Assembly: GCA_045650465.1 (NCBI GenBank)
Contig: JAZRRF010000024.1
Span: forward strand, 838 to 64,837
Origin: Alistipes sp.
GTDB taxonomy: Bacteria > Bacteroidota > Bacteroidia > Bacteroidales > Rikenellaceae
DNA length: 64,000 bases
Reading direction: 5' to 3'
Shown: positions 2,058-59,340 of the stretch, in pieces
Numbering within the stretch: position 1 is the stretch's first letter
Layout: every line of letters begins with the position of its first letter
Program-made: the position numbers and the translations under genes
Notes under the pieces: generated by a model
Database searches by the model: none
What the model saw: only the letters and a program-made list of their open reading frames with translations
Told to the model about the DNA's origin: nothing

Positions 2058-2157
2058 CGAAGAGAGAAAGCACTAAAAATCAAGCAGTTAGCATTGAAAT
2101 AAGGGGTTTTCTCTCTTTCTTTTTTATTCGCGAGACTCATGAAATGCGGAAAAAATC

Positions 2158-2194
2158 GCGAACTTTTGCGAACTTTTGCGAACTTTCGCGAACC
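2158..2194 (+). repeat. tandem 10-bp repeat GCGAACTTTT (3 full copies plus a partial one) between att core and int
   Basis: gcgaactttt gcgaactttt gcgaactttc gcgaacc read directly; one helical turn per unit; candidate Int/Xis or regulator binding array. Confidence 0.6.
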
Positions 2195-2215
2195 TTGTTT
2201 GTTCCTTGTTTGCTC
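2194..2215 (+). repeat. tandem CTTGTTTG(T/C)TC x2 (candidate right arm-type site of attP)
   Basis: Same core as the 1932-1953 repeats, same orientation, immediately upstream of the int start codon. Confidence 0.55.
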
Positions 2216-2230
2216 CAAATCACAAACATT

Positions 2231-23580: not shown

Positions 23581-23619
23581 CTTTTCGTTTTCACCTTTCA
23601 CCTTTCAGTTTTCACCTTT
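23581..23619 (-). repeat. heptad-periodic motif array (minus strand: GGTGAAA ACTGAAA GGTGAAA GGTGAAA ACGAAAA)
   Basis: cttttcg ttttcac ctttcac ctttcag ttttcac cttta read directly; overlaps the last four portal codons (KGEN-stop). Confidence 0.55.
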
Positions 23620-28377: not shown

Positions 28378-28552
28378 ATCTTCATTAATTAAATTAAACA
28401 CCCAATGTTAGGCATAAATCAAACCATTCACATTGCGGTTTTTTTTGCGAAATTCGTACTTTTTTTATTTTTTGTTCGGCAAGTTATTCATTCTTTTAAT
28501 GCTGTTTTGTGCGGAATTGCAATAAATTTTTGCGGAAAAGAGATTTTTTCAT

Positions 28553-30416: not shown

Positions 30417-33400
30417 TTATTCATAACGCTTCATTATTTCTGTTGCAATATCAGTCAATCTTCTAACCTCACTCATTCTCCATTCGGGATCTTTGTTCTG
30501 CTTTATAAACTTTTTATGTGCCCCTATGGCGTTAATAACCTCCTTAAAACCTTTATCAGCATATACGCCATAATGCTCAACAGCCTTTGCTCTCTCTTCA
30601 GGTGACAACTCCTCGCCATCACGAATCTTTTCATAGTCAGACTTGAATTTATCGTGAAGCACTTTATACTCATACCACCTTTCAAGGTCCTCGAATGTCT
30701 CCAACTTTTCGTAAGTATTAACCTTTGAGTACTTGTGAAGCGCTTTTGTCGCCGCATTCTCCACAGGAGAGCCAAGCAACTCTTCAAGTTTCTCCTTTCT
30801 CAAAGACTTCGCCACATTCGTGCCGTTTCTCTCGTCCATGCCCTCAATCCATTTCTTTTTAAGGATTTCCTTTTCGGTGTCCGAAGACTGGTCATATATT
30901 ACACTTATATCCTCCGGAGAGTATTCCTTTTCGACACGCTCCTTCAAGGTCTCCACAAACTTGTTGGCATACTTGTCAACTCGCTTCTCGTCCTCGCTGC
31001 CAAGTGGGAAGTTTCTTGTCATCTTATACTCGATATACCTGTCTGCAACCTTTTTCACCTTCTCGGCATCAGCACCATATATCTCATCAAGAATAAGCAT
31101 ATCCTGCTGCGACTGCGGAGCCTCCAAAATTCTCAAACCCAGTAACACACCATCGTTAGCCAATTTAACATCGCCATCGCTGACATCAATAAACGCTGCT
31201 GCGAGATCAATCAACCTCTGCGGAGAGATACCGGTATTCATTTCGGTTAAGATTATTCCAAGCTGCAAGATACCGGCTGCCGTGCCGTCTTTTTCGAAGC
31301 TGTCAATTACTTTCTGCAAGTCTCCCTCAAATGGAGCTTCAAGCAATCCTACTGCATATTTACCATCGGTTATATGCTTCTCATAGAGACCCTTTGCAAA
31401 GTTACCAAGCGTAAAGCCCTCGAACATTCCGGTAACGCCCACCTTCTTTGCCATATCATATATCTTCTCCTTTTCTTCCTCGTCATCACCGAACAACAAG
31501 TAGGGCAGTTGTCCCATCAGTACCCACAGATAGTTCATGCCATAACCGAATATCGCCAAGTTGGTAAAATCTTTTGCGTAACTCTTGTAAAACTCCTTTG
31601 TGGCCTGTTTCCCAGCAGTCACTTCATCTACACCCATCTTGATATACTTCTGCTTGGTGGCCTCGCGTATTCTCTCGCCACGCGCAAGCTTCTTGCCTAT
31701 TCCAACCATGCTGCCTACAACTCTTCTCTGGAATGCCATCTGCGAGTTTCGGAACAAGGTTGTTAGCAAAGCTACAAGACCGCCATCCTTCTGCAGGGAA
31801 CTCAAATATGCACCCTGACCACTCTGCTGGGTCTCGTTGTAAGAGATAGCCGCGTCATTCTTCGCGCGTTTATCCGCCTCATACTCCGTCAAGCCTAAAG
31901 ATTTATAAAACCTCAGTCTCGTGTTATACACAGCTCTTGCACCGGATGCAACAACCACAGCGTCAATAAAAGCATTAGGTGTCATACCCACCATTCTTGC
32001 TGCCTTCATTATCCTGCTGTCATAGATTGAATACTCATTCTCTCCAAGTCGCTCATTACCGGCTGTGCGCCCTTTCCAACGCTCCTCAAAGCCGGGAAGG
32101 TTCTTAATTGCCCAGTTCCAAGAAGACCACCAGCCTACAGGAGTCGATGCGGTCCACATCAAGTCAAATACATTCGCGTCTCCTAAGAATGCCGGCAAAC
32201 TCGCAATCTGTTTCAAGGATGTAAATCCACCGTAAGTAATCTTCGCTGCATTTGCTCCACTCATCAGTTTGGCAAGGTAATCCGCCTTTGGCTTGTAGTT
32301 GCCTGTTGCAATTCGGGCAGTATCCACAAAGTCTTTCCAAAGAGTTTCTCCGTCACCGTAGCGCACACTCTTTGTGTTCTGCACACGATTCTTGAAATCT
32401 TTGTCGTTAATAAGAGTGTTGTTATCCCTTATAAACTCCGCGTATGCCGCCCAATGCTCCATATCCACGATATGTTCATTAAGGACATCAAAAGCATTTG
32501 CCATGAGGTCTATCGGGGTAACATTTACCCTACGCTTGATAATTGAACCGGTTATTGTAGATGGAATAGCATCCGAGGTGTTGTTTATATCCTCATTGCC
32601 TTGTCTTGCATCCTTGTTCACCCTCAATGGGAAGTAGTTCTCTACCTCGCTCATAGACGCACCGAACATTCTCTGGTGAACCTCGTTCATTCTTGGCCTC
32701 ATTTGTGGCAAGAACTCAGCTTGGATATAGTCCGCAAACTTCTTGTACTTGGCAGGGAGTTTCTTAACAGCACCCTGCACCTTCTCTTCTGTCAATCCCA
32801 TGTTACGCAATTTCATCTGTCCCTCAGCCTGTTTCTCGGTCATGTAGAGATACATCAACTGGCCTATGGTCAGCTCTCGTTCTACCGTTGCACCACCATT
32901 CCAATACGAAAGTATCACACCGCTTCCCTTTGTCGATTCGCGCGCAATAGTCTTGTAAGTCTTGCCAATTATCTTTTTATCGAATATCTTCTGCGCTGCA
33001 GCTTCAAGGATATTGAAGTCATTCTGTGACTCCTTCCACTCCTTATCTTGTGCCTCGTTGAACGCAGTCATGAAGTGATTAAACAATTCACCTCTTCCGT
33101 CAAGGTGGTCGCGGCCAAAGTATTTCATGTAATTCTCATAAGTACCCAAGCCATTCATCACAGTACGAACTATGGGGTTCTTATAGACAACCATGTCAAC
33201 AGTCTTGCCGGCAGCTCCAGGCTCTTTTCTCTCAGCACTCTTGTCAACACCATTCATATCGCTCTCTGCCATGTCATGGATTCTCTGCACACGCATAGCC
33301 TCTGCCTCGCGGAACGCCCTTGCACGCTGCACACCTTCGTAGATGTCACCGCTCAAAGCATGGAGCACTTTCTGGTATGCGTCAATCTGCTGCGCCCTCA

Positions 33401-36400
33401 ACTGTACAATCTGCGAGTTTATGGTCTTTGCAAACTCATGGTACTCTTTCCAGGTGATTTCTCCCTTCTCAGCCTTTGTACGCTTCCCGGTCAGTTCATT
33501 TTTAATTTTCGTTATATCAGCCTCAGCAGCCTTCACCTCGTTTCTGTAAGTCGCAGCCAACAGCATTGCATCAGCCTCAGCCTGTGCCTCCTTCAGTTGG
33601 TTCTCAAGAGCCGTATTGCTACCATTCTCCTCAAGCTGCTTCTGGATTTCTCCAACTCTCTTGAATGAGTCGTTGTACTTCTCCTCAAAGCCCTCGTCAT
33701 CAAGGTTGATTGCATCTTTGTAAGTATTTAGGATTCTCTTTCCGATGATATCCACACCGCCCTGAACAACAACACCACTTGCGTTGACTCTCTCCGCGCC
33801 GGTCTTCATCTGCTTTTCCATTATCTCCTCAAGCTGGCTTGTGTGCTCATTGGTGATAATCTCAGCAATCTTCACGGCTGCGCCGTTTACCGTTTTCGCA
33901 TGGCCACCGGTAGCCTTTTGCATGAGGTTCAGCAAGCGTATAATCTTATAGCTCGACATGCCGCTCATCGCATTGTTTCTAAGGTACATCTTCACAAGAT
34001 CAGTGAATATCCTTACAGTATTTCGGTCATAAACCTTCTGCGCGTTCATCAACTTTATGACATTCGCAAGGTCACGGCCATACGCTCTGATAGCAGAGAG
34101 GCGCATTTCTACATTCTCCTTCTCCTGCTCTGCATGTTTCAAGAGGCTTTCTGTAATTCGCTCCTGGAGCGTCATTGCCTGTGGGTTTGTCTGCAATCCG
34201 GCAGGCATGCTTTCGCCCGTGATAGCATCCCTCTCCGCAAACAAACTGTCGTGCATCTCCCTCTGCTCCTGTGTCTCAAGGGCAAAGCCCAAGTACCTCA
34301 AAACAGTGATAGGAAACCTCGATGTCACATTATGCAACCTACGTATAGCCTTTGCATTCTCCTTCAAAGCCTTCTTTTTCTGCTCAGGAGTGAGTTCCTT
34401 CTTTGAGAAAAGCGTCCTCTCCTCTTGCACATTCAAAGAATTATCAACCGATTTATCTCCATAAACCATTTCATCTTCATAGAGAACAGATTCGCGGCTC
34501 TCTACATCCACCATGTCAAGCAATTTAATCGTACCACCCGAATACAGTCCTATGTACGCCCCTAAATTCGACTTGGCAGCTGCACTCAGTGCCGGGAAAC
34601 GTCCAAACAGCACAGGCCTGTTTCCACCCATCACTGTTGTGTAATAAACAATCTCCTTAGCAACCTTCTTTGCGCTCGCAGCAGTTATACCAACAAACGG
34701 TGTAAAAACATTACCTACAACTCTATTTTGGTTATTGCAGACCAAAAGGCCAATCTTGTTTCTATCTCCCAAGCGATTAGAAGATATGAATGCCGCAACA
34801 TCGCTATCATTTTTTACCTGAAACAATTCTGCCGGGTTGAAATCCTTGTCGAAAACCTGCTTGTTGAACGTGAATGTCTCAACAGGTACGTCAGCCCCAC
34901 CTTCAGCCTTTGTACTCCTCTCTTCGTTTGTCTCTTTAGCAGTGTCGTATATTCCGAACTTGCCACTTTTTAGGTTTATAATAATACCTTTCTCTACAAT
35001 ATCCCCATAGATTGTTCTAAAACCTTCCAAAGCAGCCACATCTTCATTAGAAGCCCTCAAAGCACCGCTCGGATGATTATGCACCAGATATACCTTATCC
35101 GGTTTGACATTCTCCATGGCCACTGCCACTGCAGAAGCGTTAATTATCGAAGAGGTGTAATGTCCCATGCCCAAGTGCAGTACCACAGGCTTGCCGTCTT
35201 TTACAAGTACTGCAAAAGAGTTCTCAATGCTTTCATCTTCGAGGTTCTTGAAGATATACGCAACATCCTCCAAGGACTCAATCTGTTCCCCGGCTGTAAA
35301 ATCAAAAGCTTTGCTTTTTGTAAATACTCGTTGTACGAGAGACGTCTCACCCTCTTCGAGTGGACGTAGCGGTGCGTTTATTAGAGTAAGGGCATCTCCT
35401 CCTGCAAGACCATCCCGTTGTATATCACCTGTTCTGGTCCTGTTGTCAGCGGTTTGATTTCCTCCACTGGCACCCCGTTGTATGTCGGTAGTTGTTCGCT
35501 CATCAGTATCGAATAATTCAAGTTGTTCATATCTAACAATCCTGCCATCGCCTGTCGTATGCAAAGTTATATTTTTATTTTCAAAATTCCTATCATTACG
35601 ATTACCTCTTCTGAACATCGTCTGCCCCTCCATCACACTCTCCTTCATTTCCGGAGTAACATCAACAGAGTGCATCACATTGTTCTGCTCAAGAGAAGGC
35701 ATTTCAACAGTGCCGACCTTTGCACCCCACTTCTTGGTGTACTTCTGCACGAACGATGGCAGCATCTTGTCATAGAAACCCTTCATACCCTCGCCACCAA
35801 TACGCAAGCCATCACCGCTGATGGTGTCTCCCTCTTGCATTTCAAGCATTTTATTTGCAAGCGGTTTTCCTACAATATCTGCAATAGATTTTCCGATATA
35901 CTCATCTTTGGAATTGACAACTATTCCGTTCGGGTCAACTATAAATTTGTAGTCAAGCCCCATAGAGAAGCTCTTGTTTCCGTTCTTTCCAACCTTTTCG
36001 CATTCTATATGGCTAACAACTTTGGCTATATTATACCTCTCCGCCTGCTGTTCACCCGTAGTCCAAGCCACCTTGTCAAATCCCTCCTCGGCAGCAAGTC
36101 GCAGCATACGCTTCATCGCAAGCTCATACCAGTTCTTCTCAAAGGGAGCAGAGGGGATACCTCTCTCTTGTCCTCGCAGTTCTTGCAATCGTTTTTCAGC
36201 CTCATTGCGTGCCTGTCCCAACGCATCCATTGTGATTCTTTCCTCTTCGGATAGCATAGCGTCAAAGTTCTTTAGGCGTTCAAACATCGAGCCCCCAAGT
36301 TCCTTGAAGTTATACTTTTCTTTCAAAGGCTCTCGGTATGCAGTCAATTCCCTATTGGTTTTACGAACCTCTTCTTCAGCAGCAAGTACTTCTTTGGCCA

Positions 36401-39400
36401 AACCAACACCACGATATCCCTTCTCTCGGCCATCCTGGTGTCTCTTGGACTGAATCTCATCAATCACAAGCACACGATTACCCTCGCTGTCGGTAGTCTC
36501 ACCAAAGCGCACCCAAGCAACAGCACGGCCTTCGCCTGCATCACCAAAGTGAATCTCATCGCTTTGGTTGTACGGCTCAATGGTAGGCACCACAAGAGCA
36601 ATCTCACGTTTGCGTTCAAGACCTTCTGTTGTATAACTCTCTCGATGCTCATTGATAGCGTTGTCCGCAGGGTTTGCATCAACAATCTTATTATCCAATA
36701 TGAAATCCTCATATTCGCCTTCGCTTACCGTTGACTCACTCCATAGAACCTCGCCATTGTAATACTCAAAGAAATCCTCAATGCCGGGGTACTTCTCTTG
36801 CATAGCATCCCAACCAATCTCCTTTGTTTCAGCCTCAAGTTTCTTTGAAGCTTCATTCATCATACCACTGCCGAACTGAGAGTATCTCACCTCCTCAATC
36901 TTGATAGTATTCTCATTAACGAAGTCAAGCACTTCCTGTTTGGTAAGCGATTTGCTCTCGTTGTTCTCCAGCCATTCACTGAGGCCCATCCACGCCTCCT
37001 CACCGGCCTTCAAACCGCCGTTCTTCTTCAGCATAGCAAGCCACTGCTCGGGAGTAGCCTTCTCCTGCTTTATACCCTCAACAGCCCTCTGCGCATTGCT
37101 AACAAAAACTTCCTGATTGTAGTTGGCCTTGCGGAACATCGTGCTACCCAAGTCTGTACCTTCCGGCAAATCCGTTTCAACAGGAGGGTAAGTATAATCG
37201 CCGCCCACATCCTTTGTGTGCAGCTTTGCATCAGCATCAATGACACTTATGTTTCCAGCCGCGTCGCGCACAACATTTCCCTTCTGCAAATCAGCGATAA
37301 CAATCTCGCCATCAGCAAAAGCCGTGTTCGCATCATTCAGCGGCTCAAATCCAAGAGACTGCATATACTCCCTGCGCTCCTCACTTGTCAGCGGAGTACT
37401 CTCGGCAAAATCCACAATAGGCTGCTGGAGAATCCTCACGAACTCACCATCAATCTCACCATAACCCAAAATCTCATATCTTGTGTCACGGAATACATCG
37501 TTAAACAAAGCAATGTTGTCAATGTCAGGGCGGAAACGCTTGCCGAAAGGCTTGCCCTTAGATGCCTTTATAACATAACGGCCGTCTTTAGAAGAATAGA
37601 CCTTTGAGTCCTTACCCTCACCAATAGGCTCGGTATCATCAGTAAACTCCTTGAGGTCAGTATGCCAGTTACCGGTGGCTATAGCCCACCCTTTGAGGAG
37701 TTCTTTCTTTCTCTCCTCAATCTCTCTTCTTCCTGCTTCACTAAAGCGTTCATTCGCTGGGACTGCGCTCTCAGATATTCGGCTGAAAAGCGCATCGACA
37801 GCGTTCGCTCTCGCTCCTTGACGCAGCGCTCGTTCCATTCTCTGTGGAAGTCGTTGCGATATTCTCCGTCCGAAAGGGTTAGCAGGTGTAGCATCTTCAA
37901 TGAATTTATCTATCTGCGACAAAGTTACATCATTAAAATCACCTTTCAAAACAGAAGAGTATATTTCTTTCGCAAGTTCCTTTCTTTCAGCCTCTCTCTT
38001 CAGGCGTTGCTTCTTTGCATACTCTTTGTTTCCATATATGATACCGCCAACTTCATCAAGAACATTGTTTATGCGGTTCTTCTCCTGGCGTCTCTCCGAC
38101 ATCTTCTTGCTCGCCATTGTCTCACCCTGGCCGGTAACCTGTGAAACCTTTCCGTTTTCAGTTTTCACATTTCCGTTTTTCCGTAGGTTCGCATAGCTTG
38201 CCCTGATGACCGCCTCAACATCCCTCTGCTTCAAGTTCTTGAAACCAGCCTTGCGCAGCACATTCATCACATAGTCAATGAACCTCTGCCATACACTCTT
38301 CTCAAGCTCGTTCAAGTCCATCTTCTCTGCGATGTGTGCCACATACTCATCAGCCGCCTGTCGCATCTTCGCCTTTGACGGATTCGCCATGTCGGCTCCA
38401 ACATACTGTAAGAAGTGCGCTCTCAACGCTGCAGGCATCATATCCCAAACACCATCGAGGAACTTGTCAAAATCCTCTTGGCCCAATAAATGCTTGATAC
38501 CATAGTGTGACACAGCCTCATGCAGGATAGTGCTCTCCACATCGCGCATACTCTCCATATTCGGCATATACAGCGCAATCTCACCTGTGACAGGATTATA
38601 CCAACCCTTTACCTCACCACCCTCGGCAATAGCCTTCATCGCATCTTTATTCGTTACCGTTGACTCATCATTGTGCACAGTAACCTCAACGCCCAACTTC
38701 TCGGCAACCCCCTTCGCATGGTCAGCAAAACGCGCTTGTTGCTTCTTCTTTGCCGTTTCAAGAACCTTATCCGCAACCGGATGAGACGCTTTTGCCTTAC
38801 CATCCACATAAACCTGTGTGCCTATCGCATTTCCCTGCTTGTCATAACGGGTGACTGATGCCGCCTTGCCGCCTCCGTCATACTCCGTATGCTCAAACAG
38901 CACACCCTCGTCGTATGAATCAACCGACACAACCTTACCGTCGTGCTCAGTGACAACCGTTGCCACCTCACCACGCGAATTGTAGTTCGTGATACGCTTG
39001 TCGCCATTCTCAAGCACCTCCTCGGTAAATGTAGGCTCCTTAATCTCAGCCACACCGCTTTGGCCGGGAGCGTTTCCACCCTCGGCCATCACTGGTGTAA
39101 ACCAACCATCAACCTTGCTTTCAAGCGAAGTGCCCTTTACAATAGCCCTCAGTTCCTCAAGTTCATTGGGGTACAATCCACGCTCCTTGGCTTTGTAGAA
39201 TAACTCATACGCTGGGGAGATTTTGCCATATTCCTCGCGGTTACTCTTGCGCACAGCCTCCATATCCTTCAGCATCTGCGTACTATTACCCGCGCTGTTG
39301 AGTGTATAGTGGTCTACAACTTGGTCACTTGCTTGTGATATAGTTGAACCGTTCGGAATTTCCGAACCGCTTACTTGTTGATTTCCTTGTGACGTTGCAT

Positions 39401-42400
39401 TCTCGCCACCGCTGTACACATCACCTTGAACCTTGCCTCCTTGTCCTGGCTCTCCAAGGTTTGTATCTCCTGTGTTGTCAGCAAATTGTTCGCCTTGCAG
39501 TAGTTCACTGCTTCCGCGAGTACTCTCGCTTTCTCTTGTGGTGTCATTTTCGTAATTTTCCGCTAAGTTATTAAAATATTCTGTTTCATCAAAACCTTTA
39601 AGCTCTTGCATTATACGAGGCACTATCGACTCTTCGTATGCAATCTGCTCTTCGATAGACTCAAAGTTAAGCGCATTAGCAACGCCTCTCAACTCCGCAA
39701 GCTGTTGCTCAACATCAGTCTGCTGTCGCATCTCAAGGCCCTTCTTTGCAAATGAACGAGGATTACCGTTAGAGAGAACATCAATAATCATATCCCTCAC
39801 ATCCTGCATATCCCCATTAAATCCAAGGCCACGCAGCTCATCACCATAGCTCTCATAAATGATTTCAGCAGCACGTTCAATGCTCACGCCACCCTTCTCC
39901 TTGCCGGCAATAACACCAACCATCTGCTTCTGTTCAGCCTTCGTACCAGTCTCTTTTTGGAAACTTTCCGGAGTAATCTTAATTCCACCCAACTGATTTG
40001 CAACAAACTCATCGGGAGTCATTTCAATCACCTCCCTCGGTTTTACAGCCTCAACAGACTCACGCATCTCGCTTTGTGAAATCTCCGCGTCGCGTTTAGC
40101 CACCTCGTTCCAATAGTCAACCTTCGCCTGTGCCGCCTTCTTGCCAGCCTCCCACTTATTCATGGCAGCCTCGTATGCATCAGGGTCAGTACCTACATTC
40201 GGTTCCTTATCAAACTTCGTCAGCGCACTCTCCGCCTGCTTGCGGTTATTCTCAATCATCTGCGCACGCGCTTGGCTATTAGGCACGCGCTGCACAAAAT
40301 ACTCAAGAGTCTTTTCCGCCGGCATTTCAGTAAACAACACCTTGCCACCCTTGTCGGTAGGCACCGCAGTCGTAAAATTAGTTTCAGCCAGCAACACAAC
40401 ACGTTTGCCATCAACATCAACAGTCACACTGCCATCCTCATTGCGGGAAACAACAGCATAGTTCTTGCCATCCATACGGAAGAAATCAGGCACCTCTGCC
40501 ACCTTGGGCGCAACCACCTGTGGCTGTGCGGTCTCTGTCTGTGCAGTTTCATTAGACAACCCATTAGACAACCCGGGTTGTTCAATAGGCTGTGTAGTTT
40601 CAACAGGTGACACAACGTCACCACTTGTAGCGCCTTCCGCTTTGACCTCTCCGCCTTCAACTACAGGCTGCTTTCCTGTAGCATCAGCCATGATGGCCTC
40701 GAATTCTTTTGCAGGCACCTCTGTAGGCCTGCCGTCAATAAGAGCGTCCACCATATCACCGCGTCGGCCTACAAGCATTACAGTGTGGTCGCCTTCCGAG
40801 TCACTATACACAAATGTATTAAGTTGGCTTTTGTAGCGAGCATCAATCTCCGCACGCTTTACAGCCTTCTGTGCCTCAGCATTCTCAACAGCCACTTTCT
40901 CGCGGATGTTACCGGCTTGTATCGCCTCCTTCTTGCTGTTAGGCATAAGAGCTACCAAACCCTCACTCTGATTAACATCAATATAGCCATCGTTATCAAG
41001 CACTACCGTGCCACCGGTAATGTAAATAACCTCACCGGTGCTTGGCAAAGTAGTCATATACACATTGCCATCCTCGTGCGCTACAGCATCAACACTATTG
41101 TCCGCCTCAATGATCTCACTTTCTCGCTCTGCGTTGAGCCTTTCACTCATACCATCATACCTTGCCTTCTCTTCCAAGTAAGTATACAACGCATCCGCAA
41201 CAGCTTCATCACCCATGGCAACCTCATCAACACTTCTGCCACCGACGAAATCCTCAATGCTCGCATCATTCTGCAATCCAAGTGCAACCCTTACCGCTGT
41301 CTCCGCATCATCCAAAGACTTGTTGGCAAGAGCAATCGTGCTTCCGTTCACAGTATCAGGATCGGTGTTGTAACCCTCCTCGTAACGACCATTAAGCATT
41401 TCATTGAGCATTTTCTGTCGCTCGTCTGTGATAGCCTCACTTACTCCTATCGCAGTCTTATACTGCAAAGAATACACGGCATACTGCAATGCGACCTTTT
41501 TCTGTTCATTGGTCAGTGTTTCATCGGCATATACATCTTTAATTGCCTGGTCAATCTCACTTAATGTCTCTTCTGTGTTCTCTATTGAGCCATTATCGAG
41601 GCGCGACTTGATTTCATCCCATTGGGCTATGTTCTCACCCCACAATGTACGAGCTGTGCGGTCTGCGCTCTGCATCTTCCATTTCTCCTGAGCACCCAGT
41701 TTGAACGAACCATCATAAGCACCTACGGCTGTTCTCAATGATGATGTGATAGCACCCGGAACAGCCACAGCAATAAGCGTAGTAGTCAAATCCTTCTCGT
41801 TGAAGAAATCTTTAAGTTTAGGGTCTCTAAGCAACGCCGGAGATAACAAGCCCACATGTACCTCTTCCATAAACTCCTCTATAGGTCCATGCCAACCTGT
41901 TCTCTCAAAGAAATTACCCAGGGTTTTACCAAATCTGCTATTAGCAAGATTATCTATCCACCCCAATACTTTTGTTCCCTTTCCCCATTTGCGTAGCTGA
42001 CGGAATGGAAGAGACGCATAACCTGCACCGATCATTTCCGATGCAGTGTCCAGCATCCTCTCCGTAAATTCTTCGTACACGGCTGTCGCAGCTCCTTTCT
42101 CATTCTTTTGCCCACCATATACCAATTTGCCATCCTCATCAGTGTCTACGACAACATCACCCTGCATGCGTTCCTGTACACCTGCTATCGTGCCGGGCAG
42201 CTGCATGGTTGCAGCTGTGCCATATCCAGCAGCAACAGAGCCGGCTATATTTCCTAACACCTGCGTGCCCTTTTTCAAAACATTTGAACGGAAACGCTTC
42301 TCAGCCCATTTAAGGAGCTTCTTGCCGGCAGCCTTACCCGTACCGCGAAGTGGGTTTATTGCCATCTCAAACATAAGAGGTATGCTCTCCATGAAAGATT

Positions 42401-43823
42401 TACCGGCACCGGCCGATGCCGATAGGTCCTCTGCATACATTTCATTATACGCAGTAAGCATAACCACCGACTCCAGGAACTTCTGCTCTGCCTGTGTAAG
42501 AGAGCCTTCGCCCTCATCATTTATCTTGTCAAGCACACCTTGCAACGCTTGACCTCTCTTAATTTCTTCGGCACTCGTCCATGTGTCAGGGTCAAGGATT
42601 GCCGCGCCCATACCGGCAACAAACTGTTTGCCGCCTCCGCCTTCCGCTTGAGCCAACGCCTGTAGATTCTTCGCCTTCGCAATATTCTGCCTGGTGTAGT
42701 TAATCATGTCAAGCTGGCGCGCGACTTCCTGCGCCTCCTCGGTTGGAATACCGTTAATAGACATTGCATCTCTTACCGCATCAGCACTGGTCATGCCTCG
42801 TTGATCTGTGGTCGACAAAGCCATCGCTATATCCCATCCCGCAGGTTTCTCCTTCTCCCAATTAGCCTGCGCTTCACCGGCCTTAGCCTTAATCTCTGCC
42901 TCAATAGAGTCCAAGCCCTCTTCCAGTTCAGCCATCTGTTTGTCGGCCATGTATTTCATCGTGGTATCATCGTCGGCCACACCGGCTTCTATCTGTGCCG
43001 GGGTATATCCGCGTTTTCCTGCTATGGCGCGTTTATCCACAACAGCATCCATAGTCAACTCATTAGCTTTGAGATTTCCGCCTGTGGCCCAACGGAAGAG
43101 CAAGTCATAATCGCCATTTACTCTACGATCGGTAGCTGCTAAGAAATCATCCTCAATCTCGTTGATAGACTTTCCAAACATGCGCTCCAAGGTCTTTACC
43201 TTTGAAGCATCATCAAGTTCGCTAAAATCTGTTCTAACAGCCTCAATAGTTTCGACCTTTTGCTCAGCCTCAACTTTCTGTTGCTTCTTCGACTGCTGCT
43301 TCTGATGTTTGGCATTCCAACCATATTCATGATTAGGGGTTGCATTCTTCTTGACGTCCGGAGTGACACCGACTTTAACTCTAACCTGTTGTGCTACTTC
43401 ATCCACCTGCTCTGGTGTAAGAGGATTGATTATAGCCCCGGAATCATCTTCCTCCTCCTCGTTACCATCGCCCTTTAGAGCTTCCCACTTCTGCCGCACA
43501 CGACTTTTCTTCTGTTCTTCTACAGCTTCCTCTTTTAATCCCAACTCTCCCCCGGTAAGGGTAAAACCATTCTCGCCACCCTTGGGTTGCTGCGCAGGAA
43601 CCGGTGCGGTCGTCTTCTGCTCCACATTGGGAACAAGCATTGCTGCAAACTCTTCGTAACTATCACCAATATCCGTGTAGCCACTATTTCTCATTGCGTC
43701 ATAAGCTACACGCACATTCTCCGGTTTTTCCAACAACTTGTTGAACTCCTCCTGGTTCTCACCAATATCTGTGTACCCCTCATTTTTAAGGGCGTTGTAC
43801 AATATCGTTCTATTGTCGTTCAT
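30417..43823 (-). CDS. giant multidomain (polyvalent-type) virion/ejection protein, about 4470 aa
   Basis: Uninterrupted 13.4-kb ORF; ATG at 43823 (TTG at 43832 in the ORF track). Contains HExxH, kinase-like and RadC/JAB motifs (see domain features). Confidence 0.9.
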   Translation of the reverse strand: MNDNRTILYNALKNEGYTDIGENQEEFNKLLEKPENVRVAYDAMRNSGYTDIGDSYEEFAAMLVPNVEQKTTAPVPAQQPKGGENGFTLTGGELGLKEEAVEEQKKSRVRQKWEALKGDGNEEEEDDSGAIINPLTPEQVDEVAQQVRVKVGVTPDVKKNATPNHEYGWNAKHQKQQSKKQQKVEAEQKVETIEAVRTDFSELDDASKVKTLERMFGKSINEIEDDFLAATDRRVNGDYDLLFRWATGGNLKANELTMDAVVDKRAIAGKRGYTPAQIEAGVADDDTTMKYMADKQMAELEEGLDSIEAEIKAKAGEAQANWEKEKPAGWDIAMALSTTDQRGMTSADAVRDAMSINGIPTEEAQEVARQLDMINYTRQNIAKAKNLQALAQAEGGGGKQFVAGMGAAILDPDTWTSAEEIKRGQALQGVLDKINDEGEGSLTQAEQKFLESVVMLTAYNEMYAEDLSASAGAGKSFMESIPLMFEMAINPLRGTGKAAGKKLLKWAEKRFRSNVLKKGTQVLGNIAGSVAAGYGTAATMQLPGTIAGVQERMQGDVVVDTDEDGKLVYGGQKNEKGAATAVYEEFTERMLDTASEMIGAGYASLPFRQLRKWGKGTKVLGWIDNLANSRFGKTLGNFFERTGWHGPIEEFMEEVHVGLLSPALLRDPKLKDFFNEKDLTTTLIAVAVPGAITSSLRTAVGAYDGSFKLGAQEKWKMQSADRTARTLWGENIAQWDEIKSRLDNGSIENTEETLSEIDQAIKDVYADETLTNEQKKVALQYAVYSLQYKTAIGVSEAITDERQKMLNEMLNGRYEEGYNTDPDTVNGSTIALANKSLDDAETAVRVALGLQNDASIEDFVGGRSVDEVAMGDEAVADALYTYLEEKARYDGMSERLNAERESEIIEADNSVDAVAHEDGNVYMTTLPSTGEVIYITGGTVVLDNDGYIDVNQSEGLVALMPNSKKEAIQAGNIREKVAVENAEAQKAVKRAEIDARYKSQLNTFVYSDSEGDHTVMLVGRRGDMVDALIDGRPTEVPAKEFEAIMADATGKQPVVEGGEVKAEGATSGDVVSPVETTQPIEQPGLSNGLSNETAQTETAQPQVVAPKVAEVPDFFRMDGKNYAVVSRNEDGSVTVDVDGKRVVLLAETNFTTAVPTDKGGKVLFTEMPAEKTLEYFVQRVPNSQARAQMIENNRKQAESALTKFDKEPNVGTDPDAYEAAMNKWEAGKKAAQAKVDYWNEVAKRDAEISQSEMRESVEAVKPREVIEMTPDEFVANQLGGIKITPESFQKETGTKAEQKQMVGVIAGKEKGGVSIERAAEIIYESYGDELRGLGFNGDMQDVRDMIIDVLSNGNPRSFAKKGLEMRQQTDVEQQLAELRGVANALNFESIEEQIAYEESIVPRIMQELKGFDETEYFNNLAENYENDTTRESESTRGSSELLQGEQFADNTGDTNLGEPGQGGKVQGDVYSGGENATSQGNQQVSGSEIPNGSTISQASDQVVDHYTLNSAGNSTQMLKDMEAVRKSNREEYGKISPAYELFYKAKERGLYPNELEELRAIVKGTSLESKVDGWFTPVMAEGGNAPGQSGVAEIKEPTFTEEVLENGDKRITNYNSRGEVATVVTEHDGKVVSVDSYDEGVLFEHTEYDGGGKAASVTRYDKQGNAIGTQVYVDGKAKASHPVADKVLETAKKKQQARFADHAKGVAEKLGVEVTVHNDESTVTNKDAMKAIAEGGEVKGWYNPVTGEIALYMPNMESMRDVESTILHEAVSHYGIKHLLGQEDFDKFLDGVWDMMPAALRAHFLQYVGADMANPSKAKMRQAADEYVAHIAEKMDLNELEKSVWQRFIDYVMNVLRKAGFKNLKQRDVEAVIRASYANLRKNGNVKTENGKVSQVTGQGETMASKKMSERRQEKNRINNVLDEVGGIIYGNKEYAKKQRLKREAERKELAKEIYSSVLKGDFNDVTLSQIDKFIEDATPANPFGRRISQRLPQRMERALRQGARANAVDALFSRISESAVPANERFSEAGRREIEERKKELLKGWAIATGNWHTDLKEFTDDTEPIGEGKDSKVYSSKDGRYVIKASKGKPFGKRFRPDIDNIALFNDVFRDTRYEILGYGEIDGEFVRILQQPIVDFAESTPLTSEERREYMQSLGFEPLNDANTAFADGEIVIADLQKGNVVRDAAGNISVIDADAKLHTKDVGGDYTYPPVETDLPEGTDLGSTMFRKANYNQEVFVSNAQRAVEGIKQEKATPEQWLAMLKKNGGLKAGEEAWMGLSEWLENNESKSLTKQEVLDFVNENTIKIEEVRYSQFGSGMMNEASKKLEAETKEIGWDAMQEKYPGIEDFFEYYNGEVLWSESTVSEGEYEDFILDNKIVDANPADNAINEHRESYTTEGLERKREIALVVPTIEPYNQSDEIHFGDAGEGRAVAWVRFGETTDSEGNRVLVIDEIQSKRHQDGREKGYRGVGLAKEVLAAEEEVRKTNRELTAYREPLKEKYNFKELGGSMFERLKNFDAMLSEEERITMDALGQARNEAEKRLQELRGQERGIPSAPFEKNWYELAMKRMLRLAAEEGFDKVAWTTGEQQAERYNIAKVVSHIECEKVGKNGNKSFSMGLDYKFIVDPNGIVVNSKDEYIGKSIADIVGKPLANKMLEMQEGDTISGDGLRIGGEGMKGFYDKMLPSFVQKYTKKWGAKVGTVEMPSLEQNNVMHSVDVTPEMKESVMEGQTMFRRGNRNDRNFENKNITLHTTGDGRIVRYEQLELFDTDERTTTDIQRGASGGNQTADNRTRTGDIQRDGLAGGDALTLINAPLRPLEEGETSLVQRVFTKSKAFDFTAGEQIESLEDVAYIFKNLEDESIENSFAVLVKDGKPVVLHLGMGHYTSSIINASAVAVAMENVKPDKVYLVHNHPSGALRASNEDVAALEGFRTIYGDIVEKGIIINLKSGKFGIYDTAKETNEERSTKAEGGADVPVETFTFNKQVFDKDFNPAELFQVKNDSDVAAFISSNRLGDRNKIGLLVCNNQNRVVGNVFTPFVGITAASAKKVAKEIVYYTTVMGGNRPVLFGRFPALSAAAKSNLGAYIGLYSGGTIKLLDMVDVESRESVLYEDEMVYGDKSVDNSLNVQEERTLFSKKELTPEQKKKALKENAKAIRRLHNVTSRFPITVLRYLGFALETQEQREMHDSLFAERDAITGESMPAGLQTNPQAMTLQERITESLLKHAEQEKENVEMRLSAIRAYGRDLANVIKLMNAQKVYDRNTVRIFTDLVKMYLRNNAMSGMSSYKIIRLLNLMQKATGGHAKTVNGAAVKIAEIITNEHTSQLEEIMEKQMKTGAERVNASGVVVQGGVDIIGKRILNTYKDAINLDDEGFEEKYNDSFKRVGEIQKQLEENGSNTALENQLKEAQAEADAMLLAATYRNEVKAAEADITKIKNELTGKRTKAEKGEITWKEYHEFAKTINSQIVQLRAQQIDAYQKVLHALSGDIYEGVQRARAFREAEAMRVQRIHDMAESDMNGVDKSAERKEPGAAGKTVDMVVYKNPIVRTVMNGLGTYENYMKYFGRDHLDGRGELFNHFMTAFNEAQDKEWKESQNDFNILEAAAQKIFDKKIIGKTYKTIARESTKGSGVILSYWNGGATVERELTIGQLMYLYMTEKQAEGQMKLRNMGLTEEKVQGAVKKLPAKYKKFADYIQAEFLPQMRPRMNEVHQRMFGASMSEVENYFPLRVNKDARQGNEDINNTSDAIPSTITGSIIKRRVNVTPIDLMANAFDVLNEHIVDMEHWAAYAEFIRDNNTLINDKDFKNRVQNTKSVRYGDGETLWKDFVDTARIATGNYKPKADYLAKLMSGANAAKITYGGFTSLKQIASLPAFLGDANVFDLMWTASTPVGWWSSWNWAIKNLPGFEERWKGRTAGNERLGENEYSIYDSRIMKAARMVGMTPNAFIDAVVVASGARAVYNTRLRFYKSLGLTEYEADKRAKNDAAISYNETQQSGQGAYLSSLQKDGGLVALLTTLFRNSQMAFQRRVVGSMVGIGKKLARGERIREATKQKYIKMGVDEVTAGKQATKEFYKSYAKDFTNLAIFGYGMNYLWVLMGQLPYLLFGDDEEEKEKIYDMAKKVGVTGMFEGFTLGNFAKGLYEKHITDGKYAVGLLEAPFEGDLQKVIDSFEKDGTAAGILQLGIILTEMNTGISPQRLIDLAAAFIDVSDGDVKLANDGVLLGLRILEAPQSQQDMLILDEIYGADAEKVKKVADRYIEYKMTRNFPLGSEDEKRVDKYANKFVETLKERVEKEYSPEDISVIYDQSSDTEKEILKKKWIEGMDERNGTNVAKSLRKEKLEELLGSPVENAATKALHKYSKVNTYEKLETFEDLERWYEYKVLHDKFKSDYEKIRDGEELSPEERAKAVEHYGVYADKGFKEVINAIGAHKKFIKQNKDPEWRMSEVRRLTDIATEIMKRYE
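34955..35240 (-). other. domain of giant ORF: RadC-like JAB/JAMM module
   Basis: SFAVLVKDGKPVVLHLGMGHYTSSIINASAVAVAMENVKPDKVYLVHNHPSGALRASNEDVAALEGF; the HNHPSG is encoded at 35064-35081. Confidence 0.7.
37225..37660 (-). other. domain of giant ORF: small protein-kinase-like module (polyvalent-protein kinase type)
   Basis: GEGKDSKVYSSKDGRYVIKASKG (Gly-rich loop plus Lys), IADLQKGNV (D..K.N catalytic-loop-like), VIDADAK (DFG-like). Confidence 0.5.
38141..38187 (-). repeat. intragenic copy of the heptad motif array
   Basis: Shares the exact 16-mer ttcacatttccgtttt with the intergenic array at 13868-13883; encodes NGNVKTENGKVSQ. Confidence 0.5.
38330..38780 (-). other. domain of giant ORF: zincin-like metallopeptidase (polyvalent-protein MPTase type)
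   Basis: KGWYNPVTGEIALYMPN...STILHEAVSHYGIKHLLG; the HExxH is encoded at 38505-38522. Confidence 0.6.
38810..39018 (-). other. domain of giant ORF: YD/RHS-like repeats
   Basis: ITNYNSRGEVATVVTEHDGKVVSVDSYDEGVLFEHTEYDGGGKAASVTRYDKQGNAIG. Confidence 0.4.
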
Positions 43824-43844
43824 TGCTTGCAATTTTCGTTAGAC

Positions 43845-56333: not shown

Positions 56334-56882
56334 TCAGGCATAAGCAACAGCACTGCCACCGGTTGTCCTTAACCCTTCAAAATTGCCATTCATCGCACAG
56401 TTTATGCGCGAGGATGAAACATATATTACCTTTGGTGGAAAATTCGTAAACAGGCGCTTACGTCCTTTGCCCTCCATGAATTGAAGTTTCAGGAACATCG
56501 CTACCTTGTTGCCCTCGCGTATGATGGAAAGTGCTTTGTATATGAACTCTGTTGCAAGTTTATAGGGCGGATTGGTTACTATATCGCCGTGCCAAGAGGT
56601 ATTATCCATTGAAAGAAAATCATAAACCTCAGTAGTCGGCGTGCGTTGTACAATGTCGCTTGTCCTTACGTCGTGGCCGTGCTTCTTGAATACATCGGCC
56701 AAATGGTTCTCACCGCTTGCACATTCCCATATATTGGACAAGAACTCTTCTTGTTGCAGTAGAAGCTCTGCAGCTATCGGGTCGGTGGCGTAATAGTCAT
56801 TAGCCTGCCGCTCCTTTTCGGTGTGGTTGCTCGCGCCAAGCGTCTTGAATACGCTGTTTTTATTTCCGGTCCAGTCTTTCAT
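56334..56882 (-). CDS. N6-adenine DNA methyltransferase
   Basis: DIVTNPPYK catalytic motif; ATG at 56882 overlaps the upstream stop (TAATG). Confidence 0.8.
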   Translation of the reverse strand: MKDWTGNKNSVFKTLGASNHTEKERQANDYYATDPIAAELLLQQEEFLSNIWECASGENHLADVFKKHGHDVRTSDIVQRTPTTEVYDFLSMDNTSWHGDIVTNPPYKLATEFIYKALSIIREGNKVAMFLKLQFMEGKGRKRLFTNFPPKVIYVSSSRINCAMNGNFEGLRTTGGSAVAYA

Positions 56883-57997
56883 TATTCTACTTCTTTGAGT
56901 TCTCCATCGATTAACTGATACCAAGTGTCGGCCTTGACTGTTTTTCCATCAACCTTGACCGCTCGAACTTCTTTGATTGGACATGTCACTCCATTCCACT
57001 CTTCTCTTTCGGCAATACACAGCCAACAGCCTATTGCTCCTTTTGCCTTGCATTGATAACCAGCTGCAAGAGCAATAGAATTTAAGCCTGTTGCGGATGA
57101 TGCACCCTTGTAGCCTGTTGCGGATGATGCACCACAGTTGCCTGTTGCGGATGATGCACCCTTGTAGCCTGTTGCGGATGATGCACCGTAGTCGCCTGTT
57201 GCGGATGATGCACCGTAGTTGCCTGTTGCGGATGATGCACCACAGTTGCCTGTTGCGGATGATGCACCGTAGTTGCCTGTTGCGGATGATGCACCACAGT
57301 TGCCTGTTGCGGATGATGCACCGTAGTAGCCTGTTGCGGATGATGCACCCTTGTAGCCTGTTGCGGATGATGCACCGTAGTCGCCTGTTGCGGATGATGC
57401 ACCGTAGTCGCCTGTTGCGGATGATGCACCCTTGTAGCCTGTTGCGGATGATGCACCACAGTTGCCTGTTGCGGATGATGCACCACAGTTGCCTGTTGCG
57501 GATGATGCACCCTTGTAGCCTGTTGCGGATGATGCACCGTAGTTGCCTGTTGCGGATGATGCACCACAGTTGCCTGTTGCGGATGATGCACCGTAGTTGC
57601 CTGTTGCGGATGATGCACCACAGTTGCCTGTTGCGGATGATGCACCGTAGTCGCCTGTTGCGTGTTTGGTATTCTCCGGTGTTGATTTCTCAAATGTAAA
57701 TTTAATTGCAGCTGCAACAATGTCTTTCAGTGAAAGTTCTGCGCCTATCTTGATTTTCGTTGAGCAGGTTTTATCGCTTTCGCTCTTATCAATCTCTCCA
57801 CTTTGTTCTACTTCGCAATAGCGGCTATCGCTGGGTGCATAATGACTGAATACATCTAATGGATGCTCGCAAGCGTGAAAACCACGGTGACAGGCTTTTG
57901 CTTCTTTCTCTTCGTATTCTTTGCCTATCTCGTACTGGAAGCCTCGGCACTTGAGGTCTTTGTCGAAGCCTTTGAATGATTTAATAATCTTTGTCAT
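56882..57997 (-). CDS. repeat protein: GFHAC-motif N-domain, 21 x GASSATGxx nonapeptides, Cys-containing C-domain
   Basis: 371 aa; N-terminus KGFDKDLKCRGFQYEIGKEYE...CHRGFHACEHPLDVF. The central array is encoded by perfect 27-bp repeats. Confidence 0.75.
   Translation of the reverse strand: MTKIIKSFKGFDKDLKCRGFQYEIGKEYEEKEAKACHRGFHACEHPLDVFSHYAPSDSRYCEVEQSGEIDKSESDKTCSTKIKIGAELSLKDIVAAAIKFTFEKSTPENTKHATGDYGASSATGNCGASSATGNYGASSATGNCGASSATGNYGASSATGYKGASSATGNCGASSATGNCGASSATGYKGASSATGDYGASSATGDYGASSATGYKGASSATGYYGASSATGNCGASSATGNYGASSATGNCGASSATGNYGASSATGDYGASSATGYKGASSATGNCGASSATGYKGASSATGLNSIALAAGYQCKAKGAIGCWLCIAEREEWNGVTCPIKEVRAVKVDGKTVKADTWYQLIDGELKEVE
57086..57664 (-). repeat. 27-bp tandem repeat, 21 full units plus a partial one
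   Basis: gcctgttgcggatgatgcacc is invariant in every unit. It is followed by one of five hexamers: cttgta, acagtt, gtagtt, gtagtc, gtagta. Confidence 0.95.
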
Positions 57998-58160: not shown

Positions 58161-58381
58161 AGTTTCGCAATTAAGCAGATTAAATACCCAATATAAAGTA
58201 TTATATTAACAATCGCTGTAACCATAATAACCCAAGCAATAGCCCTCATCAACTGAGGATTGTACTTGTACTCTCCTGTCGCATACCAATAGAATCTATT
58301 CTTCTTGTCGACTTTATTAAACACACACAGCGCAATAAGCAGTAGCACGCTTACTATTGCGCAAAAACTCGAAATTCTCAT
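58157..58381 (-). CDS. small membrane protein
   Basis: 74 aa with 2-3 hydrophobic helices; ATG overlaps the upstream stop. Confidence 0.5.
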   Translation of the reverse strand: MRISSFCAIVSVLLLIALCVFNKVDKKNRFYWYATGEYKYNPQLMRAIAWVIMVTAIVNIILYIGYLICLIAKL

Positions 58382-59340
58382 AGTTTTCTCAATCTTGATA
58401 AAATAAATGCACCGGGTTGGTTAATCTTCCCCTTCTTAATCTCCTTGATGGCATATTGCAGTTCAACCAAAGCCTGCCGCTTGCCTCCGGCAATGCCATA
58501 AATCTCGCAATAGTCAAGATCCGAGAGATTATCCTTGCACCAACATATCGCATGATACCATTCAGTGTTGACATCTCCCGCCTGTTTACGCAGCGACTCG
58601 TTCAACTGATTCAGCGGATACCTCAACCGCTTCGTCTCCTCATCCAACTGCAACCACTCGCGGTAGTATTGGGTAAACCCATTCTGGAAGCTTCCGCTAA
58701 TCGCAACCGCATCCCATACATCCTCGCGTATCTGCGCCCATTTCCCAAGTTCAGAATATAAATTCTTAACCTCTCCTCCTCCTCGCGTGTGCGCGTCTTG
58801 AGGAAGATTATTTACTTCTATTCTATTCTCTTTACTTCTCTTTACTTCTCTTCGCGGCAAACTTCCCGAACAATCGTCCATTCCTCCCGAACAATCCGCT
58901 GTTTCTTCACTTTCCTCCGGAATAATCTCACTTTCCTCCGGAATAATCTCGCATTTTTCCGTAAGTTTGATATTTTCAGGAATTACAGCATCTTTGCGTT
59001 TCGCCCGTTGGCAGAAATCCATATAACGCTCTTGTATGGAGCGCGAAGTAACAACACCTTCCGCAAGTTTCTCCTCGTCAAAAAGCCCAACCGAAGCACA
59101 GAATGACACAACCTGTTTAACAACATCTTCCGTCAATGCAAGATATTCTGCAACATCAAAGATTATATCCTCTGTCCATTCAAGGAAACACCCCTTGTCG
59201 CGGTAAATCTCACATAAGACATAGTCATATACCGCAAGGCCTTGACAGCCATGCGCCTTCTTCAGACGTTTAATCTTGATATCCTGGTAGCGGTCTGTGT
59301 CAACAGAGAAGTAGTTGAGTCCAATTTTTGCTTTAGCCAT
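58378..59340 (-). CDS. replication initiation protein (DUF4373 / Lin1244-Lin1753-like N-domain)
   Basis: MAKAKIGLNYFSVDTDRYQDIKIKRLKKAHGCQGLAVYDYVLCEIYRDKGCFLEW is typical of Bacteroidota phage replication proteins as I recall them. Confidence 0.65.
   Translation of the reverse strand: MAKAKIGLNYFSVDTDRYQDIKIKRLKKAHGCQGLAVYDYVLCEIYRDKGCFLEWTEDIIFDVAEYLALTEDVVKQVVSFCASVGLFDEEKLAEGVVTSRSIQERYMDFCQRAKRKDAVIPENIKLTEKCEIIPEESEIIPEESEETADCSGGMDDCSGSLPRREVKRSKENRIEVNNLPQDAHTRGGGEVKNLYSELGKWAQIREDVWDAVAISGSFQNGFTQYYREWLQLDEETKRLRYPLNQLNESLRKQAGDVNTEWYHAICWCKDNLSDLDYCEIYGIAGGKRQALVELQYAIKEIKKGKINQPGAFILSRLRKL
58811..58950. repeat. cluster of short direct repeats inside the replication gene (iteron-like)
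   Basis: TTTACTTCT x3 (58811, 58831, 58841); TCCCGAACAATC x2 (58864, 58885); 21-mer cactttcctccggaataatct x2 (58909-58929, 58930-58950). Confidence 0.6.

Follow-up and report, generated by a model that had tools for sequence, protein, structure and literature searches.

The stretch of DNA examined here, a 64,000-nucleotide window of an Alistipes sp. assembly (GCA_045650465.1, contig JAZRRF010000024.1, positions 838 to 64,837), carries on its minus strand a complete gene of 371 codons plus stop (56882..57997) that encodes a DUF7666-family early, non-structural phage protein and whose central part is a tandem array of 21 units of 27 bp. Each unit combines an invariant core peptide with a variable pair of residues drawn from a small alphabet. 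The comparison with related genes shows that this variable-pair design is a trait of the whole DUF7666 family, and that the length of the array and the order of its pairs (hereafter letters) change far faster than the flanking DNA. Taken as a whole, these observations are best explained by an early phage array gene with reshuffled units whose product is a host-directed recognition rod, a reading to which we give a probability of about 0.55.

Architecture of the array and of its gene

The core GGTGCATCATCCGCAACAGGC (21 nt, encoding GASSATG) occurs 21 times at an exact spacing of 27 nt, always in frame 0 of the open reading frame (ORF), according to our reading of the minus strand and an exact scan. 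In the protein sense, each core is preceded within its unit by one of five hexamers, AACTGT (NC, seven copies), TACAAG (YK, five), GACTAC (DY, four), AACTAC (NY, four) and TACTAC (YY, one), and the letters read DY NC NY NC NY YK NC NC YK DY DY YK YY NC NY NC NY DY YK NC YK. The longest exact internal repeat, of 134 bp, is due to the duplicated NC-NY-NC-NY block. The identity of the cores, the five hexamers, this order and the duplicated block had been reported in a first-pass annotation of the window, and all were confirmed by the exact scan. Its limits for the array (57086 to 57664) were right at the start and slightly generous at the end, as the complete units occupy 57086..57652 (567 bp, minus strand), an extent obtained from the exact scan and Tandem Repeats Finder and accompanied by a matching strand and turn pattern in the AlphaFold2 model. 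Tandem Repeats Finder itself delimits 57086-57662 (period 27, 21.4 copies), the extra 0.4 copy being a partial core (A-T-G) just ahead of the first DY. An array of 21 copies was not reached in any of 100 shuffles, and no further copy of the core was found outside the array in the 64-kb window, even when up to three mismatches were allowed. As had been noted, no stop interrupts the array in any of the three minus-strand frames or in one of the plus-strand frames, which explains two shadow ORFs that the ORF list and the frame scan show to be open only through the repeat, one of 212 aa in a second minus-strand frame (57082..57720) and one of 202 aa on the plus strand (57091..57699).

The array separates two domains. 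The N-terminal DUF7666 domain (residues 5-95; 57713..57985, minus strand) is delimited by its conserved columns, by an AlphaFold2 predicted local distance difference test (pLDDT) score of 85-97, and by a match to PF24703 covering model positions 1-94 of 95 with 123.2 bits (E 6e-36; the Pfam cut-off is 27 bits). It is followed by a helix and a linker running to residue 115. In this head domain, Cys17, Cys36, His41 and Cys43, the latter two within a GFHAC motif, are near-invariant and are also kept in the Salmonella and Pseudomonas proteins, so that they could be considered, from their conservation, a possible metal or catalytic site. The C-terminal domain (67 aa; 56885..57085, minus strand; pLDDT 86-95) ends in a small β-domain, PIKEVRAVKVDGKTVKADTWYQLIDGELKEVE, and is conserved as far as the Salmonella and Pseudomonas phage homologs; the match to phrog_27197 (E 5e-25) covers the C-terminal 95 residues of the protein (276-370). 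The description of the flanking domains as non-repetitive holds for both of them, apart from the start of the C-terminal domain, where two or three units of the repeat occur in degenerate form (LNSIALAAG / YQCKAKGAIG).

The gene, recognized from the ORF list, Pfam, PHROG and its homologs, is a genuine new member of the catalogued DUF7666 / phrog_4433 family: the threshold of the hidden Markov model is passed, the whole protein matches phrog_4433 ("unknown function") with an E-value of 7.6e-121, and both the three-part layout and the location in a phage early region are those of the family. The exact 371-aa protein is not on record elsewhere. The protein search retrieved at least 7,877 relatives, and the head domain alone 4,568 clusters at 50% identity (E <= 1e-3). 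The same three-part layout is found in the phages ES18, SEN22, S107, YA3, Flu_PA14_4 and Montmirail and in about 100 metagenomic loci. Arrays of this kind, where a Gly-flanked variable pair accompanies a constant core of small residues, recur in thousands of phages and prophages. In the annotated relatives (ES18 gp53, the "c-type lectin precursor" of SEN22 and S107, YA3 QDB70960 and Montmirail WAK79228), a K-G-F...C...GFHAC...P head is likewise followed by a nonapeptide array with a Gly-flanked pair and by a C-terminal β-domain, and the gene likewise lies in the early operon. Some relatives show additional fusions. Five proteins (P0009, P0020, P0025, P0127 and P0175) carry an A1S_2505_Nterm domain of about 130 aa (FVFGSN…GxHxGGAA…SYAIPT) ahead of the DUF7666 head, and their arrays have up to about 30 units. 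This extra domain (NCBIfam NF049995, a 109-position model; 128 bits in P0009) has no match in the window protein, and no Pfam or PDB sequence match was found for it. It is this domain that gives one relative its name, "A1S_2505 family phage non-structural protein". Other viruses, including giant viruses, have DUF7666 heads fused to pentapeptide, ankyrin or DUF4116 repeats, as seen in BFVD.

Concerted evolution and turnover of the arrays

The evolution of the units was followed in 88 related arrays with at least eight units. In 30 of these 88 arrays, every core is identical at the DNA level, and the share of the majority core has a median of 0.91 over the whole set. Across lineages, the GASSATG core exists in 32 distinct synonymous versions, on average 4.7 of 21 nt apart. 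Furthermore, a single hexamer is used within its own array for 452 of the 457 pair types. Since cores are identical within arrays and hexamers are single for each letter type, the arrays are built from copies of whole 27-bp units, and we conclude from this pattern that the array evolves by the copying, deletion and reshuffling of whole units from a few unit types. Judging from the sequences compared, this is concerted evolution, with homogenization within a phage and synonymous drift between lineages, which supports the very recent expansion or continuing homogenization that the identical cores had suggested at first reading.

The turnover is directly visible among close relatives. The arrays of Flu_PA14_4 and YA3 have 27 and 28 units in a largely different order, although the 1.4 kb flanking the array on either side is 99.86% identical. 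Three metagenomic pairs (L011/L024, L012/L026 and L043/L047), with flanks 98-100% identical, differ by indels of one to three units, and the Salmonella relatives, with flanks 92-95% identical, have 2 (Emek, frameshifted), 4 (S107), 11 (ES18) and 22 (SEN22) units. Among the protein relatives, those whose flanks are 85-95% identical have 3-10 units. The window's exact core was found in three other loci, with 3, 5 and 6 units, and a search for the same-core DNA pattern retrieved one metagenome contig and no IMG/VR contig. At the DNA level, a megablast of the region against cultured phages gave no match, nor did ES18 gp53 against complete Escherichia coli genomes. Overall, the number of units in the homologs is not fixed, as 2 to 29 units occur with intact flanks, in agreement with the instability of copy number that had been predicted from the array.

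In this respect, the arrays resemble in-frame variable-number tandem repeats (VNTRs) and the contingency loci found in pathogens and prophages, which are also perfect tandem repeats in phage-borne coding genes with an isolate-dependent copy number, such as the heptanucleotide repeats in neuO of the CUS-3 prophage (PMC3046976). They differ from phase-variable loci in that the unit is 27 nt or nine codons, divisible by three, so that changes in copy number never switch the gene off and instead alter its length and the order of its letters.

The array is real as a feature, and 21 is its count in this assembly, not checked against reads. It could be argued that the array exists but that this count and the order of the units only reflect the path taken by the assembler through a collapsed or expanded repeat. 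In this direction, a contig end lies within the array in 30 of 107 related loci (~28%), the window's exact protein has not been recorded a second time, and the only other loci with the same core carry three to six units. Two contigs, JAZSEJ010000104.1 (43.8 kb; L088 and L111) and CAKTUZ010000021.1 (56.4 kb; L098 and L109), even have both ends inside an array, and look like circular phage genomes opened at the repeat by the assembler. In contrast, the maximum internal repeat of 134 bp makes every 135-mer of the window's array unique, so that k = 141, or reads of at least 150 nt, would leave the assembler a single path through it. Moreover, equally long perfect arrays are present in cultured phages (22 units in SEN22, 28 in YA3, and 16 in Montmirail, with a 188-bp internal repeat) and in complete or isolate genomes (a Kineothrix chromosome with 13 of 13 cores identical, and an isolate Eubacterium genome with 29 units). 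An assembly artefact is, therefore, unlikely in our view. As a practical consequence, DUF7666 arrays break short-read phage assemblies, give rise to shadow ORFs, and attract spurious "collagen" or "tail fibre" annotations.

The repeat might instead act as DNA, in the form of iterons or an origin, a packaging site or a recombination site, or it might be the target of a dedicated mutator such as a diversity-generating retroelement. The 21 identical 21-nt sites near a replication initiator gene, and a variability focused on 6 nt, could be read in this way. Nevertheless, the DNA of the core is free at synonymous sites across lineages while the peptide is fixed, and the origin of ES18 is annotated elsewhere, in gene 59. 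As for a mutator, the window holds no second copy of the core that could serve as a template repeat, and the differences between hexamers are not adenine-specific (G/A, T/C and T/A changes at non-adenine sites); on these two grounds, a diversity-generating retroelement was rejected. No reverse transcriptase was detected among the ORFs scanned, which were not all the ORFs of the window. We regard this whole group of explanations as highly improbable.

Many members of the family switch frame inside the array (P0123, P0130, P0138, P0159, P0164, P0174, P0181, Emek and GE_vB_TR, the last two being loci L126 and L127), for instance where …SAATNTG… becomes …TAQQPPTRATTQQPP…. As every sense frame remains free of stops, the proteins predicted by gene callers are chimeric in such cases. 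These members represent either frequent pseudogenization or indel errors in the repeats, and frequent frameshifted copies fit an accessory gene under fluctuating selection.

The variable pairs, the predicted rod and its possible role

In about 100 related loci from IMG/VR and GTDB, the arrays comprise 2-29 nonapeptides of the form GASSATGxx or GAASATGxx. The phage relatives differ from the window protein in host lineage, in core (SAATNTG, SAASNTG or GASSNTG instead of GASSATG) and in alphabet (DQ/NW/YQ, YQ/NR/DY and others instead of NC/NY/YK/DY/YY). Thus, ES18 gp53 has 11 units of TGxxSAATN with the pairs DQ, NW and YQ, Montmirail has 16 units of GASSNTGxx, and YA3 and Flu_PA14_4 have 28 and 27 units, respectively, of TGxxSAASN with the pairs YQ, NR, DY and DR. 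More distant members have units of period 8 (GGxxSALT, AGxxGAAT), where the variable pair still follows a Gly. The first variable codon is nearly always NAY across arrays (D 456, Y 378, N 342 and H 2, of about 1,270), with His nearly excluded although it is one nucleotide away, while the second residue is mostly Y, C, K, Q or R, W also belonging to the pair alphabet. The same letters are written with different codons in different lineages (four codon pairs for DY, four for YK and three for NC). Since the alphabet is kept through different codons, selection acts at the protein level, on both the core peptide and the restricted alphabet of pairs (D/N/Y; Y/C/K/Q/R/W).

Two further observations concern the order of the units. 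The series …YK-DY-NC-YK ends 67 of 180 non-redundant arrays, the interior being shuffled; the array ends thus either turn over more slowly or are under constraint from the C-terminal cap. The protein P0039 (356 aa) has a hybrid array of five GAATAGxx octa/nonapeptide-type units followed by 15 GASSATGxx units, which suggests recombination between arrays of different subfamilies.

The AlphaFold2 model of the 371-aa protein, built with 75 homologs, has a mean pLDDT of 81, which falls to 72-79 in the array. The array is predicted to follow a strict period of nine, where a five-residue strand (ASSAT) is followed by a four-residue G-x-x-G turn carrying the variable pair. The β-solenoid with exposed pairs that the first-pass annotation had proposed is consistent with this prediction, which provides one strand per unit and the pair in the turn, and it is consistent at the level of prediction only. 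In a 95% identical relative with three units (pLDDT 86.7), the start of the C-terminal domain continues the repeat as degenerate units. No significant neighbor was found by Foldseek in the PDB for the 371-aa model or for a close relative of 209 aa, the best, non-significant matches of the full model being three-sided β-helices, and no solved structure in the PDB is related by sequence to the N-terminal domain; neither flanking domain resembles a solved structure. In BFVD, the neighbors are only other DUF7666 proteins and one phage protein annotated as "Pentapeptide". The order of the letters also contains a periodic signal: in 45 independent lineages, identical letters are enriched at lag 3 (0.297, z = +4.8) and depleted at lags 1 and 2 (z about -2.7), which hints at three units (27 residues) per coil, with ladders of like on like.

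The period of nine, with a Gly-rich turn, a short β-strand and a solenoid of many tandem units, is reminiscent of the RTX β-roll. However, the unit, aligned in the corresponding register, reads G-x-x-G-A-S-S-A-T and so departs from the RTX consensus GGxGxDxUx: it lacks the GG pair, the calcium-ligating Asp of position 6 and the hydrophobic residue of position 8; the Pfam family HemolysinCabind has no match in the window protein at E <= 1. The window protein also lacks the context of a C-terminal secretion signal, and its predicted period divides into a five-residue strand and a four-residue turn. Antifreeze, ice-nucleation and pentapeptide-repeat (Qnr/MfpA) β-solenoids have Ala/Ser/Thr/Gly-rich faces and ladders of identical side chains, and those made of pentapeptide repeats form β-helices in the cytoplasm, where their action consists in binding a partner or mimicking it. 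These families differ from the DUF7666 arrays in period and consensus, without any sequence or significant fold match, and we know of no variable pair changing from unit to unit, nor of comparable hypervariability, in any of them.

We propose that the small residues ASSAT of each unit would form one short strand and that the variable pair would occupy the Gly-flanked turn, so that the pairs would line the edges of a β-solenoid-like rod. The surface of this rod, where Tyr, Asp, Asn, Lys, Arg and Trp abound, would serve recognition and diversify rapidly; the rod would be made early in infection, in the cytoplasm, where it would bind a host component, most plausibly for counter-defence or host take-over. 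The DUF7666 head would be the constant effector or adaptor part. Replication slippage would probably drive the reshuffling along with the phages' own single-strand-annealing recombinases, Erf, RecT or Rad52, whose genes usually lie nearby. We infer recognition of a host factor because expression is early, and in ES18-like phages apparently pre-terminator, because the protein is cytoplasmic (neither a signal peptide nor a membrane segment was found in its sequence), because a constant head joined to a variable repeat is an adaptor-plus-recognition architecture, because the alphabet is dominated by residues of binding interfaces (Tyr, Asp, Asn, Trp, Arg and Lys), and because diversification outpaces that of the flanks.

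The main rival of this recognition rod is a neutral spacer of variable length, where the β-rod is a ruler or linker between the N- and C-terminal domains, the pairs are interchangeable, and their variation is near-neutral slippage noise. Asp, Asn and Gly-flanked positions are indeed typical of β-turns and arcs, arrays of 2 to 29 units all occur with intact flanks, and the target of the rod is not known. On the other hand, different codons convergently maintain a tightly restricted alphabet, with two His among about 1,270 residues; the terminal letters are conserved in 67 of 180 arrays; the order of the letters is non-random, as seen at lag 3; and in a purely neutral filler, a turn exposed to solvent would not retain Tyr, Trp, Arg, Lys and Cys from one phylum to another. 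We therefore take the spacer to be clearly less probable than the recognition rod.

A different possibility is a code in which the units would each recognize a single monomer along a linear polymer, be it DNA, RNA or some other periodic target, and the order of the letters would spell out the target sequence, as in the transcription activator-like (TAL) effectors, or TALEs, of Xanthomonas and Ralstonia. The likeness to these proteins is considerable: near-identical tandem units (21 of 21 cores identical here) differ only in a di-residue, whose alphabet is small and dominated within each array by three or four letters, and the arrays are reshuffled by recombination, their number and order varying between close strains, as in the repeat-variable diresidue (RVD) arrays of TAL effectors. 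In contrast, the TAL effector unit is a helical hairpin of 33-35 residues rather than a predicted β unit of nine, and TAL effectors are secreted, whereas the window protein is a cytoplasmic phage protein. When all letter-to-base mappings were compared with both strands of the 64-kb window, the best reached 18 of 21 positions, no better than shuffled arrays (17-19), and a one-unit-one-base code directed at the phage's own DNA was rejected. A β-solenoid rises about 1.6-2.4 Å per unit at 2-3 units per 4.8 Å turn, which does not fit the spacing of nucleic acids, and no nucleic-acid-binding domain was detected in the Pfam and NCBIfam scans of the protein. Such a code is thus very unlikely.

Several points weigh against the recognition rod itself and call for a cautious interpretation. 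We infer the binding or counter-defence role only from composition, position in the early operon and hypervariability. No function was assigned by homology, by relatives in the PDB, by the PADLOC defense-system models, which gave no hit for the protein, or by the searchable literature, in which nothing relevant to the DUF7666 domain, its repeat motifs, ES18 gp53 or the phage "c-type lectin precursor" was found. The solenoid geometry is a prediction of moderate confidence, and the lag-3 signal could instead come from a preferred duplication of three-unit blocks. In the closest relatives, the low counts (3-10) were obtained from short-read assemblies, which may have collapsed the arrays, a concern that the frequent contig ends within arrays share. 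Finally, the frameshifted or truncated copies (Emek and several metagenomic members) indicate that the gene is dispensable, and fit a neutral accessory gene as well.

Phage context and implications of the DUF7666 arrays

The window belongs to a temperate phage or prophage, with a tyrosine integrase (2144-3424; Bacteroidetes-type arm-binding and SAM-like domains), a P22-like portal (23605-25584), and, on the minus strand, a polyvalent protein of 4,471 aa with Kinase-PolyVal, LPD14 and RadC-like JAB domains (30417-43832). The closest genome matches for the gene are Bacteroidaceae and Bacteroidales metagenome-assembled genomes, and the host of the phage is probably a member of the Bacteroidales. 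The minus-strand early operon, whose genes are tightly packed, successively encodes an ERF recombinase, a PD-(D/E)XK nuclease, NinB/Orf, DUF4494, NinG, a replication initiator, two small ORFs, the DUF7666 protein, a DNA methyltransferase, a DUF4406 deoxyribosyltransferase-like protein and an antirepressor. The ATG of the DUF7666 gene overlaps the end of the upstream small ORF and its TAA overlaps the ATG of the methyltransferase (TAATG). The replication initiation protein (58378..59340, minus strand; Lin1244_N and phrog_2562, from domain and PHROG matches) is also encoded directly upstream in the closest relatives and in the Blautia phage Montmirail.

In every annotated relative, the gene lies in an early operon. 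In ES18, S107 and Emek, it directly follows the antiterminator N/24, ahead of the annotated terminator, cIII, kil and erf, and in SEN22 it adjoins sieB; in lambdoid phages, this slot houses accessory genes such as ral and sieB. In Firmicutes prophages, the gene is located after the repressor/cro switch and before RecT, SSB or Rad52 genes. The neighbor genes of the window recur in only 1-6 of about 120 related loci, and, as they are so poorly conserved, the gene behaves as an independent, mobile accessory cassette.

This position also bears on the identification of the protein as a structural component of the virion, either collagen-like or a tail fibre, which is what a Pfam Collagen match of 47 bits (cut-off 27) and many weak PHROG tail-fibre matches across the repeat would indicate. 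However, Gly occupies positions 1 and 7 of nine and Ser position 4, so that Gly-X-Y is broken in every unit, the NCBIfam collagen-adhesin models reach 54-56 bits against cut-offs of 325-500, and a long way separates the gene, which lies in the early operon, from the portal and structural genes, both in the window and in every annotated relative. The collagen or tail-fibre identity was consequently rejected, the Pfam and PHROG matches being compositional, and a place in the virion has hardly any probability left.

Some other features of the window deserve mention. The translationally coupled methyltransferase (NPPY motif, phrog_799; 56334..56882, minus strand) ends in an in-frame TGA at 56334-56336 (…SAVAYA, stop, YVWEKGYKGPTTIKWIN, followed by two stops), after which the frame is open for 21 more codons. 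The sequence past this TGA resembles the end of the enzyme, and the TGA may have taken the place of a Trp codon; a nonsense mutation, an error in sequencing and the reading of TGA as Trp are all conceivable. Within the initiator gene, a perfect 21-bp direct repeat (58907-58955, minus strand; 2.1-2.3 copies) encodes EIIPEES-EIIPEES; in lambdoid phages, iteron-like repeats at such a place, within the gene of the initiator, classically mark an origin. An in-frame tandem repeat of 33 bp (27112-27234; 3.7 copies, 90% matches) is located in the ORF 26719-28401 (minus strand), which encodes a 560-aa structural-region protein with no family match. Most of the length of the polyvalent protein, of a type carried by phages and conjugative elements, is without a Pfam match.

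We could find no description, in the searchable literature, of the family-wide pattern, in which an invariant core and a selected alphabet go together with concerted evolution and with reshuffling among cultured phages that are nearly identical. The family is very large and present in model temperate phages (ES18 and P22-like phages, and YA3-like phages of Pseudomonas). An invariant core combined with a selected two-residue alphabet and with reshuffling faster than that of the flanks is a hallmark of recognition arms races. Should the rod turn out to bind host factors, it could define a new class of proteins for counter-defence or host take-over, and its natural modularity could make it a compact β-scaffold from which to engineer binders. 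A bolder and rather doubtful extension of this idea is that the DUF7666 arrays form a recombination-programmed recognition system, where the string of pairs along the β-rod would set which host protein or polymer is bound, and where annealing recombinases would reshuffle the 27-bp cassettes into new specificities against host defenses. If this were true, these arrays would be a β-unit phage counterpart of the RVD arrays of TALEs or of the variable lymphocyte receptor (VLR) cassettes of lampreys, and such a recognition system would exist in thousands of temperate phages, from those of Salmonella and Pseudomonas to those of gut Bacteroidales and Firmicutes.

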